In this document: in pieces, positions 19,499-37,790 of the stretch
Position numbering within the stretch: the first letter of the stretch is position 1
How the letters are laid out: each line of letters starts with the position of its first letter
NCBI GenBank assembly: GCA_963750075.1
Contig: CAVVPG010000002.1
Coordinates: forward strand, 453,272-517,271
Length of the DNA stretch: 64,000 nucleotides
Direction: 5' to 3'
From: an uncultured Acidimicrobiaceae bacterium
GTDB taxonomy: Bacteria; Actinomycetota; Acidimicrobiia; Acidimicrobiales; RAAP-2
Notes under the pieces: model-generated
What the model was told of the DNA's origin: nothing
What the model saw: the letters and a program-made list of their open reading frames with translations, nothing else
Database searches by the model: none
Program-made: the position numbers and the translations under genes

Positions 19499-19572
19499 GC
19501 GCTCGTAGCTCAACGGACTAGAGCATCTGACTACGGATCAGAAGGTTGGGGGTTCGAATCCCTCCGAGCGCG
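19499..19572 (+). tRNA. tRNA-Arg, anticodon ACG
   Basis: Folded by hand. Acceptor gcgctcg/cgagcgc (7 bp), D stem gctc/gagc, anticodon stem tctga/tcaga with loop ctACGga, 5-nt variable loop, T stem ggggg/ccctc with loop ttcgaat, discriminator g. 74 nt; CCA is not encoded. Confidence 0.9.
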
Positions 19573-19602
19573 CGACTGTGACCTCCAGCGCGCGACATCA
19601 CC

Positions 19603-32212: not shown

Positions 32213-32254
32213 TACGGATCAGAAGGTTGGGGGTTCGAATCCCTCCGAGCGCGC
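32213..32254 (+). repeat. att core 2: exact 42-nt copy of the tRNA-Arg 3' half
   Basis: tacggatcagaaggttgggggttcgaatccctccgagcgcgc is identical to 19532-19573. Confidence 0.9.
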
Positions 32255-32319
32255 TCCGTGCGTAGGCCCAGCGTAGCGATGATAAGGCGCTGCGGTCGCG
32301 GAGCAGGGATCCGCGCCCT

Positions 32320-32339
32320 GTCCCTACATTCGTCCCTAC
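32320..32339 (+). promoter_or_regulatory. Direct repeat GTCCCTAC-attc-GTCCCTAC immediately upstream of the integrase start; candidate arm-type site or int operator
   Basis: Two exact 8-mers with a 12-nt period, 11 nt before the ATG at 32350. GTCC is the complement of the GGAC motif repeated in the left arms. Confidence 0.3.
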
Positions 32340-32349
32340 TTTTGCGCGC

Positions 32350-33539
32350 ATGGCGTGGGGGACAGGCACCATGCGCGAGCGCAGTCCTGGGGTGTGGGAG
32401 ATCCGCATCGCCGTCGGAGTCGATCCCGTCTCAGGGCGAACGGTCCAACGCTCCTTCTCCTTCCACGGCTGCGCCGAAGAGGCCGAGCTTCACCGCAAGG
32501 AACTCGCCGCCGAGTGGGCCGAGCGTCGTGCTATCCGGGGGGCCGCGCCGTTCCTGACCGTCGGCGAGCTGGTCGAGCGTTGGCTCAGTGCGCACCATGA
32601 CTGGCGGCCGGCCACGTGGATCTCGGCCCGCTCCAACGCCAAGGCCCTCCGAGCCGACGGCTTGGCCGCGCGCCGGGTCTCCACGCTCAAGCCCGAGCAC
32701 GTGCGAGCGGCCATGACGGCATGGAGTGGTGCCGGCGCCTCGGTGGCGGTCGTCTCTGGGCGCTTCCGTGTCCTGCGCTCGGCGATCGGGTGGGCGCATG
32801 TGGAGCGCATCATCGACGTCAATCCGCTCAGCGGCATGCGGGGACCCCAGCGGCCCGGCACGCGGCTGCATCTAAATGCCGAAGAAGTGCTCCGCGTGCT
32901 CGAGGCCGCCGACGCCCTGGTCGCCGCCAGTGCGGGTGCGACGCCGAGGGCTTGCACAAGGCCCAACAGATCCGCCTGCTGGCCCGCCTCGCGGCGTACT
33001 CGGGGGCGCGGCGTGGCGAATTGGTGGCGCTGCGTTTCGACGACCTCGAGGGGCGGGTGCTCACCATCGAGCGTGGCGTCTCGGCCGACGTGCTCGGGCC
33101 TACCAAGACCGGGCGCGCCCGGAGGCTCACCCTCGGCCGGCGGACGTCCGAACTGTGGCGGTCGAGCGCCGAGCTGTGGGCGGGGAGGCTACCTGACGGC
33201 GCCGCTCTCGGTCCCTGGCTCTTCTCCCCCGAGACCACGCACCACGTCCGACTCAGCGCCGGCGCCCTCGGGCACTGGTTCGCCGGGCTCGCCCGAGCCG
33301 CCGACGTCCACGGGGCCACGCTGCACCGTCTGCGTCACACAGTGGCCACCTTCCTCGTCGGGCGTGGTGAGCTGCTGCGGGCCCAGCAGCGCCTCGGCCA
33401 CCGGGACGCCTCAACCACCCTGCGCAACTACGCCCATGCCATGCCGCTCGAAGACGGGTCGGTAGCCGACGACATCGACCAGATGCTGGGGACGCCGGCT
33501 CAGAGCTCGGAGCGGGATCGTTCGACGGACACGTCGTGA
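32350..33539 (+). CDS. Tyrosine recombinase / phage-type integrase; frame interrupted near 32925-32945
   Basis: ORF 32350..33465 gives the N-terminal SAM-like part (MRERSPGVWEIRIAVGVDPVSGRTVQRSF...TVGELVERWL). ORF 32616..33539 gives the catalytic domain (AYSGARRGELVALRFDDL, HRLRHTVATFL, LGHRDASTTLRNYAH, with the R, HxxR, H and Y residues). Span is 1190 nt (3n+2). Confidence 0.85.
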
Positions 33540-33672
33540 TTCGGCAAGTCCTTCCTATGCGTTCGGAGCGGCGGCGCGACCCCTGCCACATACCGACCGC
33601 ACCATGGGGATAGTCGATTGATCGCTCCGAGCCCGGCAATCTGACACGGTCAACCCATATCAACGTCCAAGG

Positions 33673-34269
33673 TCAGCCGACCCGTCCATTCAAGAAAGTC
33701 GATTGCTCGGGACGCTCGCGAGGCCGCTCGCGGGCTTGGAGCTCTTGGACGGCGGGGACGGGATCGGCGTCGGCGAAGAACCGGTCATCGCTGTAGTCAG
33801 CGGATCGGCCGGTCGAATCGAGAACCCACCAGGAGGCTTCCAGGGCGATCCCAGTGGGATCGGTGAAGTAGACGGAACGGACGGTACCGTGATCGATGAT
33901 GTCGGTGACGTCGTAGCGGGCGTTCTTCAAACGGCTCCGTAAATCGTGGAGCGCATCCTCGTCGGGAAGATTGAGTGCAAGATGGTCGAATTGCGCTGCG
34001 CGCGGGTCGGGAACGCCGGCGGCCTTGGTAAAGGGCTCGACGGCCGAGTCGAAGTACTCGAAAAATGCGACGGTGCACTGCGGTCCGAACTCGAAGAAAT
34101 AATGACGGAACTCCGAGTTGGCGAGCGTGGCCACGAGCCGGGCTCCCAAGACGCCGTGATAGAAGCGGACCGTGGCATCCATGTCGGTGGTTATGAGTGC
34201 GAGATGATTGATCCCGCGCCAATGTGGCGTTGTGGTCTGCAGGGTCTCTGGGACGACGGCGTTAGCCAT
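33673..34269 (-). CDS. VOC family protein (glyoxalase/extradiol dioxygenase fold)
   Basis: INHLALITTDMDATVRFYHGVLG...FDHLALNLPDEDAL...SVYFTDPTGIALE pattern. Confidence 0.8.
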   Translation of the reverse strand: MANAVVPETLQTTTPHWRGINHLALITTDMDATVRFYHGVLGARLVATLANSEFRHYFFEFGPQCTVAFFEYFDSAVEPFTKAAGVPDPRAAQFDHLALNLPDEDALHDLRSRLKNARYDVTDIIDHGTVRSVYFTDPTGIALEASWWVLDSTGRSADYSDDRFFADADPVPAVQELQARERPRERPEQSTFLNGRVG

Positions 34270-34281
34270 GAGAGCGTCCTT

Positions 34282-34896
34282 TCAGTGAGGATTATCTGGC
34301 AGGCGGTCTGACCGATGACGCGTCGCGCCGTGGGGAATCGGGGCAGAACGAGCCTGCAGGGCGGCGTGCTGAAGCTTTGTGATGAATTTGAGAAGTGAGC
34401 GTTGCTCACTCGAAGAAAGGGCGGCGTCCATTACGTCACGCTCTCGAGCGTGCATCGATGGGAGCAGCTCGTCGATGATGGTCTGCGCCGCCGGGGTGAT
34501 GTTGATGAGGAGCTTGCGACGGTCCTCAGGGTGTGGCCGGCGGTTTATCAGGCCTCGCTTCTCTAGGTTGTCGAGCAATGAGGTCATCGACGCTGTTGTG
34601 ATCAGGAGTCGGTCGGCGATGACGCTCGGTTCGAGGGCTTGGCCTTCCACAATGGCGAGGACCTGACGAGCACTGGGCGAGAGCTGGTATTCGTCGAGAC
34701 TCTGACGGTTGTGCAGATCCATCAGCAGGTCGGCAGTGCGATACATGTTGGCGTAGCACTCGGTCGCCAGTGCGCTGGCGCCGGGGTACTCGTCCTCGAA
34801 GTCATCACCGACTCGGATGAGGGGTTCGGCGACCGCCCTCGTCGAGGGGCGGCGATGCTCACCACCCTTCGACGTGCCTCGTTGCGACTCCGACAC
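34282..34896 (-). CDS. MarR family transcriptional regulator
   Basis: LSPSARQVLAIVEG...IADRLLITTASMTSLLDNLEKRGLINRRPHPEDRRKLLINIT is a canonical MarR winged helix. Confidence 0.85.
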   Translation of the reverse strand: MSESQRGTSKGGEHRRPSTRAVAEPLIRVGDDFEDEYPGASALATECYANMYRTADLLMDLHNRQSLDEYQLSPSARQVLAIVEGQALEPSVIADRLLITTASMTSLLDNLEKRGLINRRPHPEDRRKLLINITPAAQTIIDELLPSMHARERDVMDAALSSSEQRSLLKFITKLQHAALQARSAPIPHGATRHRSDRLPDNPH

Positions 34897-35541
34897 TCAG
34901 TGTGCCCCCTCCAACTCGGGGATGCGCCGTGTGAGCTCCGACCAGTCGTCGCCGATGGCCGCTTCAACCAGCTGTGTGGCTCCGGCGAAGGCATCCGCGG
35001 GCATCACCATCTGCCAGATGCGGGTCATGTTCTCGCGGTCGTCGTTTCCCATCAGGGGGAACATCCAAGCGACCAACTCCGGGAACCGGTCCTCGGGGAC
35101 GGTGCTGGCCATGACACCGACAGCCTGGCCCTGGTCGGGCACCGCGACGCGTTCTTTGATGAGCCGGTACAGATGAGTGTCCTCCTTGTACAGGTGAACA
35201 TCAAGGAAGTACTTGAAGGCCTTGGTGGCGCGTGCCGTCTCCAAGGGGTCGTGCACCGATACCGCCTTGTTCAACCCGTCAAAGGCCGCGTCGAGAGCCC
35301 GGTGATCCTTCTCGTAGGCCTCGGCGACCGAGGGTGCCACGGCTTCGAGGGCCGGAAAGATCGCCAACTCTTCTCCGTGCGCGTGCCACTCGAGCACCTC
35401 ATTGAAGAATCGGAAGCGCTCGACCGTGGCGGCCAGCCCGGGCTTGCCGCGAGCGGAGTCAAGTGCCGCCGCGTCGATCAGATTCATGTCTTGTCGGAAT
35501 GCATTGTGGATCGCCACAACTGCGTCGGTCGGACCTGTCAT
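34897..35541 (-). CDS. Hemerythrin (HHE cation-binding) domain protein
   Basis: IHNAFRQDM...EWHAHGEELAIFPAL...HRALD...LYKEDTHLY give a His/Glu-rich four-helix pattern. Start chosen at ATG 35541 (MTGPTD), which has GGAGG five nt upstream, rather than ATG 35553. Confidence 0.75.
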   Translation of the reverse strand: MTGPTDAVVAIHNAFRQDMNLIDAAALDSARGKPGLAATVERFRFFNEVLEWHAHGEELAIFPALEAVAPSVAEAYEKDHRALDAAFDGLNKAVSVHDPLETARATKAFKYFLDVHLYKEDTHLYRLIKERVAVPDQGQAVGVMASTVPEDRFPELVAWMFPLMGNDDRENMTRIWQMVMPADAFAGATQLVEAAIGDDWSELTRRIPELEGAH

Positions 35542-35714
35542 GACTACCTCCATTCATTAGGATCCATGTAGCTAGGATTCAAGCTATATAAACCCTAGGG
35601 AAATGTCAAGGGGTGCGTGGGTTGCGGTCTACGAGGTTTCGCTCACAAATGGCTGAGGACGGCGGTGATCGGACCGAACTGGAGGACGTAGTGGCCGAGC
35701 AATCCTTGACCGAC

Positions 35715-36863
35715 CTACCAGATCTTCGAAAGACGACGACGCCGACGCACGACGACCAACGCCCCACCTCCGACAGCAAACCCAGCCAGCGGCAGGAGCA
35801 GAACACTCGGGACCTCTGGCGTGTCGTTCGGCGGGATGACGCTCACGAATGAGGGTAGACAGAGTTGGGCAGCTCCTGTGGTGACGACCACCGAGGTGGG
35901 ATTCGGGATCGCCGAAGGTGGCGACGCCGAGAACTGGTTTCCAACCGAGATGCTGTGCGTTGCCCCCCCGGCCGTAACCGAGACGCACAGCAGATGAGCG
36001 CCACCGACGCCGTCACCGTTGATGGTCGACGGTCCGCCAACCGGGGTACCCGCCGAGTCGACGACTTGCTTGATGACCGGAGCGCAGAGTTCCACTGGAT
36101 GAAAGAGACCGCTGCCCGCCTCCTCCTCTGTCCCGAACTGGTCTTCCATTGTCACTCCGAATGGAGTCTTGGCGAACCCACCCGGCGCCACGCTTGCCAC
36201 TTGATAACACTGGAAGTGGTTGAGGTTGAGGTCGTTGGGATCGGTCCAAAGAGTTGGTGGCACCGAACCTGACGCCAGAGGGTTCGTGGCAAGAACGTTC
36301 GGGTCCTCTTTCCACGACGGAAGACACAACCGCGTCGACTTACCCAACGTCAGAGTGCCGGTACCGAACTGGTTCGTCACACTCACCTGAACGGTAGGCG
36401 CAGGAATGGTGGGGTCGGAGAAACAGTAGAGATGCGCCTGGGGGTTGTTCACGCCATAGACCGGTCCGGTCGAAGTGCCCGAAGAATCGCTGGGAGTCTT
36501 GATGACCGGGTTACAAAACTGGTTGTCCGTCGCGCTAGCGGTCGTCGTCGACGCTGACAGCGGCTGGATCATGTTGTGCGTGCCGAACTGGTCAGTGAGG
36601 TCCACCAAGGGCGGGCTGAACCCGTCGCTCTGCACCGGATGGCAGTAGAAGTGATCCAGTCCTCCGGGCTGAGTGGGTGGGTTAGGGCACCCAATGGTCG
36701 AACCAGCGAGCGGAGTGCAGTTCACAGCCGCCGACATGAGCGGCTGAGCAGCACCGGCGGGGATCGAGAACAGGCCAACCGCGAGAACGGCAACGGCTGA
36801 CGCCATCAAGGCGCTGGTGACGTCTAGGAGGACGCCCTTGGATAACCGACGAGGGTCGCCCAT
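35715..36863 (-). CDS. Secreted Cys-repeat protein of unknown family with a PEP-CTERM-like (or sortase-like) C-terminal sorting signal
   Basis: N-terminal signal peptide (ALMASAVAVLAVGLFSIPAGAA). Four repeat units of H-[FL]-x-C ... [DN]-Q-F-[GS] ... [LF]-C-x-P-[SV]-x-K. C-terminus TPEVPSVLLLPLAGFAVGGGALVVVRRRRRLSKIW. Confidence 0.75.
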   Translation of the reverse strand: MGDPRRLSKGVLLDVTSALMASAVAVLAVGLFSIPAGAAQPLMSAAVNCTPLAGSTIGCPNPPTQPGGLDHFYCHPVQSDGFSPPLVDLTDQFGTHNMIQPLSASTTTASATDNQFCNPVIKTPSDSSGTSTGPVYGVNNPQAHLYCFSDPTIPAPTVQVSVTNQFGTGTLTLGKSTRLCLPSWKEDPNVLATNPLASGSVPPTLWTDPNDLNLNHFQCYQVASVAPGGFAKTPFGVTMEDQFGTEEEAGSGLFHPVELCAPVIKQVVDSAGTPVGGPSTINGDGVGGAHLLCVSVTAGGATHSISVGNQFSASPPSAIPNPTSVVVTTGAAQLCLPSFVSVIPPNDTPEVPSVLLLPLAGFAVGGGALVVVRRRRRLSKIW

Positions 36864-37435
36864 AATTGAAATCCTCCATTGCCCGTAGCAGGGGGATGCT
36901 CAGTCGGCTTACGCTTTCGCAACAGTGACGTCAACGGTAATCAACTAAATCTGGTGAAAGTCACGGAGTATTCATTCATTGATCGCGGGCTGGTCATCTT
37001 TGGGTGCCCAAATGGGGCCGTTATCCACACGCCCCGTTGTGCCTCGTACGGGGATAGGGGTTCTGGACGTGAAGGCTCGGCCCCTAGCTGCATAAGGCGC
37101 AGAGCCCGTCCCCGTACTGAACCGGCACGCGGGAGCCCGCCCCCCATCGTCGCCGATGATCAAGCGGTCAACCATGGGACTCAACCCGGCTACCGAACTC
37201 GTGCAGTTCATCTCCAATCCGAGACCGCTCCCAGCGATGAACGGCCGTCTAGACCCCGCAGGGGAGAGTGGCCGAGGGTGGCGTCGATTCCGCATCAGAA
37301 AGGTGGCTTTTGGCAATCCCTTTGGCAATCTACTGAGCCAAATTTCGCAGCACCACAACACACCGGCAGGACTCGAGCCTGTCCTGAACAGGTAGTACGT
37401 CACTGGATACCACGGGATGGACCAACGGAAAATAA

Positions 37436-37477
37436 TACGGATCAGAAGGTTGGGGGTTCGAATCCCTCCGAGCGCGC
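37436..37477 (+). repeat. att core 3: exact 42-nt copy of the tRNA-Arg 3' half
   Basis: tacggatcagaaggttgggggttcgaatccctccgagcgcgc is identical to 19532-19573. It is followed by ccgag, as at core 1. Confidence 0.9.
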
Positions 37478-37578
37478 CGAGTAAGTCCAGTTCAGAGCAA
37501 GTTTCTTGCTCTTCGAGCGACCGGGCCGCCTCCTATTGCTTCTCGTTGCGGCCATTTGCCGAGATCGTTCATTCCGGG

Positions 37579-37776
37579 GCAGTGGTGGGCACCAACGGGG
37601 AATCGCCACGTCTGACAGCGACGCAAGAGTTGGGAGCATCGTCGTGCGATGCGCAAGAAGCTGTGGCGCGGTTCGTCGCCGAGGTGTCGGGAGGTGGACA
37701 CAGCGCACAGGACACAACCTTTGGTGATCTCGTCGGCGACCGGATCGAGCTCACATCCCGCGACCCGCTTCAAGGG
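37579..37776 (+). pseudogene. Probable N-terminal relic of a second tyrosine integrase
   Basis: The frame of ORF 37417..37827 reads VVGTNGESPRLTATQELGASSCDAQEAVARFVAEVSGGGHSAQDTTFGDLVGDRIE. This parallels the N-terminal arm-binding/SAM-like region of the 32350 integrase (SFSFHGCAEEAELHRKELAAEWAE...TVGELVERWL). It has no catalytic domain and abuts the convergent gene ending at 37791. Confidence 0.35.
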
Positions 37777-37790
37777 CGACGACGTGACCA

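Follow-up and report, generated by a model that had tools for sequence, protein, structure and literature searches.

Exosortase systems have been defined in diderm bacteria, in which they are tied to the outer membrane and to exopolysaccharide. XrtG of the Firmicutes, which is short and linked to glycosyltransferases, is an exosortase-family enzyme in a Gram-positive lineage, and the Acidimicrobiia are classed as Gram-positive. Here we describe a gene from an uncultured Acidimicrobiaceae bacterium whose secreted product belongs to the DUF7450 family and carries a P-E-x-P (PExP) motif in its C-terminal tail. The gene lies in a stretch of 64,000 nucleotides (nt) of contig CAVVPG010000002.1 (positions 453,272 to 517,271; below, the window, numbered from its first letter). 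For the PEP-CTERM system and its enzyme EpsH, Haft 2006 (PMC1569441) named the three enzyme motifs CxG, NxxR and HxxxG, gave a median of 8 PEP-CTERM copies per genome, found no examples in Actinomycetes and tied the system to the outer membrane. Where membrane-embedded enzymes do the cutting, the signature of the signal adjoins its helix without a spacer, and ArtA/PGF-CTERM provides the strongest experimental precedent for a cleavage that is coupled to the attachment of a lipid (Haft 2023, bioRxiv 10.1101/2023.06.07.544157). A literature search for exosortase together with Acidimicrobi* gave no paper, and one for exosortase, Actinobacteria and PEP-CTERM returned nothing relevant.

With a probability of roughly 0.78, the product is a disulfide-stapled cell-surface protein and its tail is the sorting signal of an unnamed Acidimicrobiia exosortase. 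An exosortase-type tail had already been proposed from the letters and the reading frames of this DNA alone (below, the sequence-only reading), and each of the tests suggested there favours it. The gene and the parts of the tail are the following.

35715..36863, minus strand: gene of the DUF7450 protein (P0001), 382 amino acids (aa), secreted, with PExP tail; open reading frame (ORF) with ATG start and stop codon at 35715-35717.
35808..35819, minus strand: signature P349-E350-V351-P352 (PExP), after T348 and directly abutting the helix; P and E invariant in 42 and in 17 tails.
35748..35807, minus strand: transmembrane helix, residues 353-372 (SVLLLPLAGFAVGGGALVVV), with near-invariant Pro358; helix at 353-381 in the AlphaFold2 model, position P13 of the tail profile at least 90% conserved.
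35733..35747, minus strand: Arg cluster R373-R377, cytoplasmic anchor; R374 and R375 invariant in orthologs.

The PEVP motif, the 20 hydrophobic residues S353-V372 and the RRRRR cluster that the sequence-only reading had listed for the C-terminus are all present. The tail stops 2 residues short of the C-terminus. As in the signals of membrane-embedded enzymes (bioRxiv 10.1101/2023.06.07.544157), the tag abuts the helix without a spacer.

To find further carriers, a hidden Markov model (HMM) built from 40 ortholog and 2 paralog tails was searched against the 37,308 six-frame ORFs of the source genome, a metagenome-assembled genome (MAG) of the Acidimicrobiales with 4.28 Mb in 10 contigs and 91% completeness. 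The search gave nine C-terminal matches of 25-63 bits with the target tail on top (63 bits, E=2e-17), and the next-best match, at 17 bits, came without the P-E motif. A tenth, weaker candidate on contig C6 scored 13 bits with this HMM and 29 bits with a second tail profile (A2). At least eight other proteins of the genome carry the tail, which answers the proposal to look for the same ending elsewhere. Eight of the nine tails end at most 6 residues from the C-terminus, and the carriers have signal peptides. Their mature parts are unrelated, with a GH16 glycoside hydrolase, an 864-aa phosphoesterase-family protein, a PD40 propeller and DUF7450 next to carriers that lack a Pfam domain (one 963-aa protein and several smaller ones). 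Two of the carrier genes are adjacent (G000:C1:1249524-1251752); one encodes a His/Asp/Gly-rich protein without a Pfam domain and the other a PD40 (TolB-like) propeller, both with PExP tails. On contig C5 (G000:C5:298991-299089) a 134-aa frame that starts with YD/RHS-like repeats has a PExP-type tail 30 residues from its end; it may represent the last part of a larger repeat protein after a frameshift.

Pro and Glu are invariant across all aligned tails, 42 in one alignment and 17 in another. The residue after Glu is V, A, S or T and is followed one position on by Pro (or Ser/Ala), giving P-E-x-P; the helix contains a Pro (L-L-P) conserved to at least 90% and precedes the Arg cluster. The tail is a tripartite tag, composed of PExP, a helix of about 20 residues with a conserved Pro and an Arg cluster, that is common to at least nine unrelated signal-peptide proteins. 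The curated PEP-CTERM model TIGR02595 (cutoff 16 bits) scored two of the tails at 9.6 and 9.2 bits and gave nothing on the others. PF07589 had no match on the target protein in a Pfam scan, and none of the NCBIfam sorting-signal models reached its cutoff over the P-E motif.

The search for an exosortase that the sequence-only reading had suggested revealed a single homolog in the genome (G000:C6:76604-78400), with 69-75 bits to PF09721 (69.4 in the scan against a cutoff of 25.7) and 59.5 bits to TIGR04178 (cutoff 23). The motifs C230-S-G, N272-L-G-R275 and H296-P-F-V-G are present, with C230, R275 and H296 at least 97% conserved among 120 homologs. The enzyme has about 600 aa, and its conserved C-terminal part (residues 401-599) is without a Pfam match. 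Seventeen NCBIfam models match the enzyme; XrtA is the best subtype with 51.7 bits against a cutoff of 208, and all 16 models of named subtypes (XrtA, D, W, V, R, E, S, H, X, N, F; ArtA, C, D) stay below cutoff. One of the homologs is named 'exosortase/archaeosortase family protein [Acidimicrobiales bacterium]' by NCBI. The gene adjoins pstB and a PstS-like gene (G000:C6:76604-79800, locus L001), and the order exosortase-pstB-PBP_like_2 is repeated on a metagenome contig (L007). At the exosortase locus, the C-terminus of the PstS-like protein is a class E sortase signal (LASTG, helix, RRR), so this phosphate-uptake locus mixes two surface-anchoring systems. The MAG that contains locus L010 (G062, C2:1171870-1214265) has a pair of exosortase paralogs with 59% and 44% identity to the query; they lie 40 kb apart, each with a tail-bearing ORF nearby.

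The tag and the enzyme share their distribution. Among 200 genomes of the class that are at least 85% complete, searched with the tail profile at E<=1e-5, enzyme homologs of 36-45% identity were found in 6, belonging to 5 families. The tail was found in the same 6 and neither of the two in the other 194; this identical phylogenetic profile favours the exosortase reading. In five of the six genomes a tail-bearing ORF lies 0.1-15 kb from the enzyme gene. A second sample comprised 60 closer relatives. All nine of these that have the enzyme also have tails, with 1-9 full-length matches each and at least one within ~15 kb of the enzyme gene. Orthologs of the target protein itself were absent from the 60 relatives. 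Five named MAGs with an ortholog, assigned to Acidimicrobiales or Acidimicrobiaceae ('MFD' series and 'palsa_740', from soil and permafrost samples), all contain the enzyme (59-74% identity) and 2-9 tails each; in four of the five, the ortholog is found 20-41 kb from the enzyme gene on the same contig. On one metagenome contig, an ortholog of 43% identity lies 5.5 kb from the enzyme-pstB-pstS group. The tag is restricted, or nearly so, to genomes with one particular exosortase subfamily. Regarding the expectation that an exosortase-type tail would be unusual for this lineage, the system is indeed unusual for Actinomycetota, but it is not unique to this genome and recurs sporadically across the Acidimicrobiia.

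Several points weigh against the assignment of the tail to the exosortase. With 9.6 bits, a target-type tail remains below the curated PEP-CTERM cutoff of 16, and the target gene and the exosortase gene are located on different contigs in this genome. Since related genomes are not independent, the co-occurrence counts overstate their statistical weight. Furthermore, 4 of the 51 enzyme-negative relatives have full-length tails (G006, G007, G031 and G034, from the same genus and 71-91% complete), and the TIGR04178 model found no exosortase in these four either. The main tail matches of G006 and G034 sit in ORFs of 63-141 aa, and G031 has three tail matches within 45 kb on one contig. Tails without the enzyme in these genomes could possibly be due to incomplete assembly or be cargo relics after loss of the enzyme. 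They would also fit a tail that acts as a mere stop-transfer anchor of an unprocessed type I membrane protein, for which the helix and the Arg cluster suffice; PExP would then be a helix cap or linker, and the link to the exosortase would be indirect, for instance by a shared envelope regulon or locus. For such a passive anchor the invariance of P-E over unrelated carriers, and over families diverged to 36-45% in the enzyme, is hard to explain. The tag is also absent from all 194 enzyme-negative genomes of the class, which surely have membrane-anchored proteins, and we consider the stop-transfer explanation unlikely. In principle, the tag could be read by another enzyme that travels with the exosortase locus, with the exosortase acting on something else: co-occurrence and neighbourhood cannot separate genes that always travel together, and the locus also contains pst genes, a sortase and unannotated ORFs. 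We give very little credence to this proposal. The architecture of the tag is exactly that of known exosortase and archaeosortase signals, and the exosortase is the only sorting enzyme of a known class with a matching profile here; no candidate for another was found.

A sortase signal, with L357-P-L-A-G361 or the conserved LLP cut by a class E sortase, perhaps the long one linked to the exosortase, is the least probable of the explanations considered. It draws on the conservation of Pro358 (at least 90%) and on the LPXTG_anchor model TIGR01167, which scores two of the tails with 15.9 and 16.7 bits at a cutoff of 15.9. However, this alignment covers only positions 11-33 of the model, that is the helix and the Arg residues, and misses the LPXTG itself; in a true LASTG protein from this genome, the alignment starts at position 1. 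A cut within LPLAG would leave only 11 hydrophobic residues, as the sequence-only reading had pointed out, and the stretch varies among the tails (LPIAA, LPVSA, LPLLG, LPGAG, LPVVA, FPAIG) with P-E invariant, which disfavours it as a sortase motif. A class E sortase gene near the exosortase is a further point for the sortase and against the exosortase as the processing enzyme. In most relatives that have the enzyme (G001, G003, G014, G018, G022, G023, G028), such a gene, with long ORFs of 390-560 aa, is found at a distance of 1-2 kb from the exosortase, and its equivalent in this genome (C6:96686-97054) is 18 kb away; because of this linkage, neighbourhood alone is no argument against a linked sortase. 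Long sortase ORFs also occur in genomes that are both enzyme-negative and tail-negative (e.g. G008, G024), and Pfam Sortase matches were obtained in 60 of 61 genomes compared to tails in 13 of 60. In this genome, the two sortases with high scores belong to class E and are intact (A-G-H-R-T-T, L-T-T-C-N-P and the downstream Arg). They have separate substrates with LASTG, LANTG, LAVTG or [MI]AFTG, then about 20 hydrophobic residues and Arg, and two of these substrates lie in the exosortase locus. Since sortases are present in 60 of 61 genomes with LAxTG substrates of their own, they do not explain the tail, and the outcome of the sortase search again favours the exosortase.

With the exosortase as the preferred enzyme, a route can be outlined by analogy to XrtA/PEP-CTERM and ArtA/PGF-CTERM. 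The protein would be exported by Sec, its disulfides would form outside the cell, and the tail would anchor it in the membrane. There the exosortase would recognise PExP at the outer face, remove the helix together with the Arg anchor and probably transfer the protein to an acceptor in the envelope.

The part of the protein in front of the tail is organised as follows, together with the start of the gene.

36872..36877, minus strand: Shine-Dalgarno-like GGAGGA, 8 nt 5' of the ATG of the target gene (upstream 18-mer CAATGGAGGATTTCAATT).
36750..36863, minus strand: signal peptide, residues 1-38 (basic RRLSK, hydrophobic core, PAGA), read from the sequence.
36666..36749, minus strand: N-terminal cap, residues 39-66, with Cys49 and Cys59, both invariant among close orthologs.
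36495..36665, minus strand: unit 1, residues 67-123 (HFYC74...DQFG...FC117NPVIK); C74 and C117 invariant in 39 sequences.
36306..36446, minus strand: unit 2, residues 140-186 (HLYC147...NQFG...LC180LPSWK), from motif positions and orthologs.
36066..36230, minus strand: unit 3, residues 212-266 (HFQC219...DQFG...LC260APVIK), from motif positions and homologs.
35841..36008, minus strand: unit 4, residues 286-341 (HLLC293...NQFS...LC335LPSF), from motif positions and homologs.

The signal peptide noted earlier is present, with a basic stretch, a hydrophobic core and PAGA before A39-Q40, where cleavage is predicted. A38 and Q40 are invariant across 13 orthologs, and the AlphaFold2 model has a helix at residues 10-31. 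A Tat signal was rejected by eye: RRLSKG deviates from the S/T-R-R-x-F-L-K consensus, and the RR pair is absent from orthologs. All motif strings quoted for the four units were found again, with H-[FL]-x-C at 71/144/216/290, [DN]-Q-F-[GS] at 91/164/241/309 and [LF]-C-x-P at 116/179/259/334. The proposed two copies of a bipartite module are likewise borne out. Residues 61-195 and 196-350 align with 32% identity (E=2e-11), so two copies of a two-unit module are not a chance pattern. Compared to the closest ortholog gene, dN is 0.133 and dS 0.579 (nonsynonymous and synonymous divergence); with a dN/dS of 0.23 the gene is under purifying selection.

The ectodomain had been described as belonging to no recognised family. 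This does not hold, because the repeat is Pfam PF24247 (DUF7450, 'Repeat of unknown function'), which matches the target protein in 2 stretches with 37.2 bits against a cutoff of 27; precomputed PF24247 matches exist on many homologs. The target ectodomain shares the unit H-x-x-C...[DN]QF...C-x-P-[ST]-x-K with the family, for which a literature search yielded no paper. Searched exhaustively with phmmer, 1.84 billion representatives yielded 893 clusters at E<=1e-3. Only 23 of them reach E<=1e-30, so that the family is moderately large and the branch of this protein small. The family differs from the target protein at the C-terminus. Most of its sampled members have no C-terminal anchor, and the PExP tail occurs only in the Acidimicrobiia branch. 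Among 204 sampled sequences, 45-47 have the PExP tail, all from the close subfamily, 54 end at the last CxPSxK, and none has an LPXTG or classical PEP-CTERM ending. The tail was thus gained as a module on one branch. The close homologs P0002-P0040 keep it in 38 of 39 cases; P0034 stops before the tail, and the C-terminus of P0038 differs. In six distant members (P0054, P0055, P0057, P0059, P0061, P0066), a Thr-rich linker leads to the C-terminal end, which carries a conserved P-S-[GA]-A-F-[LI]-[DE] motif. This ending may be another, different C-terminal signal.

The AlphaFold2 model of the protein, based on 39 aligned sequences, is all-beta with a mean predicted local confidence (pLDDT) of 88.1 and a predicted template-modelling (TM) score (pTM) of 0.82. 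With the full-length model as query, Foldseek returned no meaningful match from PDB or BFVD (best E ~9e-3, TM ~0.1), and a sequence-profile search of the PDB returned no chain at E<=1. Since both searches came up empty, no known adhesin domain can be named. A half-module (residues 62-190) folded alone gave a poor model with a pLDDT of 69 and a pTM of 0.42. From these models, the four units probably fold cooperatively as one body and not as beads on a string. Ten Cys residues are found in the protein, eight within the units and two near the N-terminus (C49 and C59). In order to follow the unit cysteines through the family, 274 units of 66 members were aligned to a unit HMM, of which 268 are filled at both Cys columns. 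Both Cys are present in 235 of these, neither in 30 and one in 3; about two thirds of the units with neither come from three related proteins (P0048, P0050, P0060). That the two cysteines of a unit are kept or lost together fits one intra-unit disulfide in each of the four units. Our best guess for the ectodomain is a structural or adhesive component of the cell surface. With a confident model and no relative in the PDB, it is a reasonable target for structural genomics.

The gene is the last one of a small mobile segment, with the following landmarks in the window.

19499..19573, plus strand: intact tRNA-Arg(ACG), integration site of the stacked segments (ARAGORN).
32213..32254, plus strand: left attachment-type (att-type) direct repeat of segment 3 (repeat search and alignment).
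32350..33539, plus strand: tyrosine integrase of segment 3, split over two frames by a frameshift near 32950; PF00589 with 57 bits in the second frame only.
36864..37435, no strand assigned: leader or non-coding tract of 572 nt upstream of the target gene, from the start codon to the att repeat.
37436..37477, plus strand: right att-type direct repeat (3' end of tRNA-Arg), end of segment 3; the 42-nt copies are 100% identical.

Three segments are stacked at tRNA-Arg(ACG) between 19499 and 37477. Their direct repeats consist of the 3' 42-43 nt of the tRNA, and a further copy is found near 26.8 kb. Segment 3 (32255-37477) measures 5.2 kb and also holds VOC/glyoxalase, MarR and hemerythrin genes; its cargo genes have a guanine-plus-cytosine (GC) content of 0.62-0.63 compared to 0.695 for the genome. 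It is the only one of the three with an integrase, and segment 1 starts with an ISL3 transposase. Either the split integrase is a pseudogene, or the split comes from an error in the assembly. With att repeats, the tRNA-Arg and the PF00589 integrase in place, the integrase-bearing island recognised in the sequence-only reading is confirmed, and the non-coding tract of 570 nt described there corresponds to the 572 nt that separate the start codon from the repeat at 37436-37477. The tract gave neither a tRNA nor an Rfam match, and the GC content over the whole 927-nt intergenic region (36864-37790) is 0.59. In a search of the leader, the sole promoter-like match was on the wrong strand and the sole terminator-like match inside the target gene. 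Apart from 11-12-mers expected by chance, the upstream regions of eight cargo genes have no motif in common. The closest ortholog (79% identity) is located among transposase genes and an RVT_1 reverse-transcriptase gene. In 7 related loci no tRNA was found beside the orthologs; the setting in an island is thus particular to this genome. The target gene seems to have moved from the enzyme locus, which is the usual site of its orthologs, onto a small integrative element.

A well-delimited pair of exosortase and tag in an actinobacterial class would offer a simpler envelope for asking what the substrates become attached to. The distribution of the pair is cleanly all-or-none, and its cargo includes recognisable enzymology (GH16, phosphoesterase, PD40 propeller). 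Since the P-E-x-P tag and this Xrt subtype are without curated models, hundreds of metagenomic proteins appear just as 'hypothetical' or as 'exosortase/archaeosortase family protein'. What the target gene itself adds is modest: one more cargo protein, notable for riding on an integrative islet. A more far-reaching picture, which we regard as possible but rather doubtful as a whole, would be a distinct, unnamed exosortase system of the Acidimicrobiia with a P-E-x-P...LLP signal that covalently attaches varied enzymes and structural proteins to a probably monoderm envelope, with the DUF7450 body as a new fold among the cargo and with cargo moving on tRNA-integrating islets. If this were true, the product of an incoming cargo gene would be displayed on the surface only where the host had the enzyme beforehand.

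Among the known systems, XrtG resembles the present one as an exosortase-family enzyme in a Gram-positive lineage. It is short and glycosyltransferase-linked, whereas the enzyme described here has about 600 aa, is linked to pst genes and does not have XrtG among its NCBIfam matches. In ArtA/PGF-CTERM, known from the S-layer glycoprotein of Haloferax volcanii, an exosortase-family enzyme processes surface proteins of cells that lack an outer membrane, but this system has a PGF signature and belongs to another domain of life, and our enzyme reaches only 19.9 bits with the ArtA model. PExPT-CTERM/XrtJ (TIGR04200) has the same P-E-x-P spelling, and one paralogous tail matches this model over the motif; the score of 14.6 bits is far from the cutoff of 40, and XrtJ is not among the 17 NCBIfam matches of the enzyme. 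The comparison with PEP-CTERM/XrtA (EpsH; TIGR02595, PF07589, TIGR03109) covers both parts of the pair. In the present system the signature is P-E-x-P instead of P-E-P, the helix has about 20 residues instead of 14 and contains a conserved internal Pro (LLP), and the tag scores under the TIGR02595 cutoff. The enzyme reaches no Xrt subtype cutoff, has an extra ectodomain of about 200 aa, occurs in an Acidimicrobiia host and is found with pst genes (PstB, PstS-like) and not with exopolysaccharide genes in the loci examined; none of the latter was seen in the examined parts of the enzyme locus, for which no systematic search was made. Common to both systems are the tripartite C-terminal tag with a Pro-Glu signature at the helix and a basic cluster, its occurrence in several copies per genome (at least nine here) on signal-peptide proteins with little known homology, a long intergenic region upstream, and the co-occurrence with an EpsH-family membrane protein having CxG, NxxR and HxxxG.

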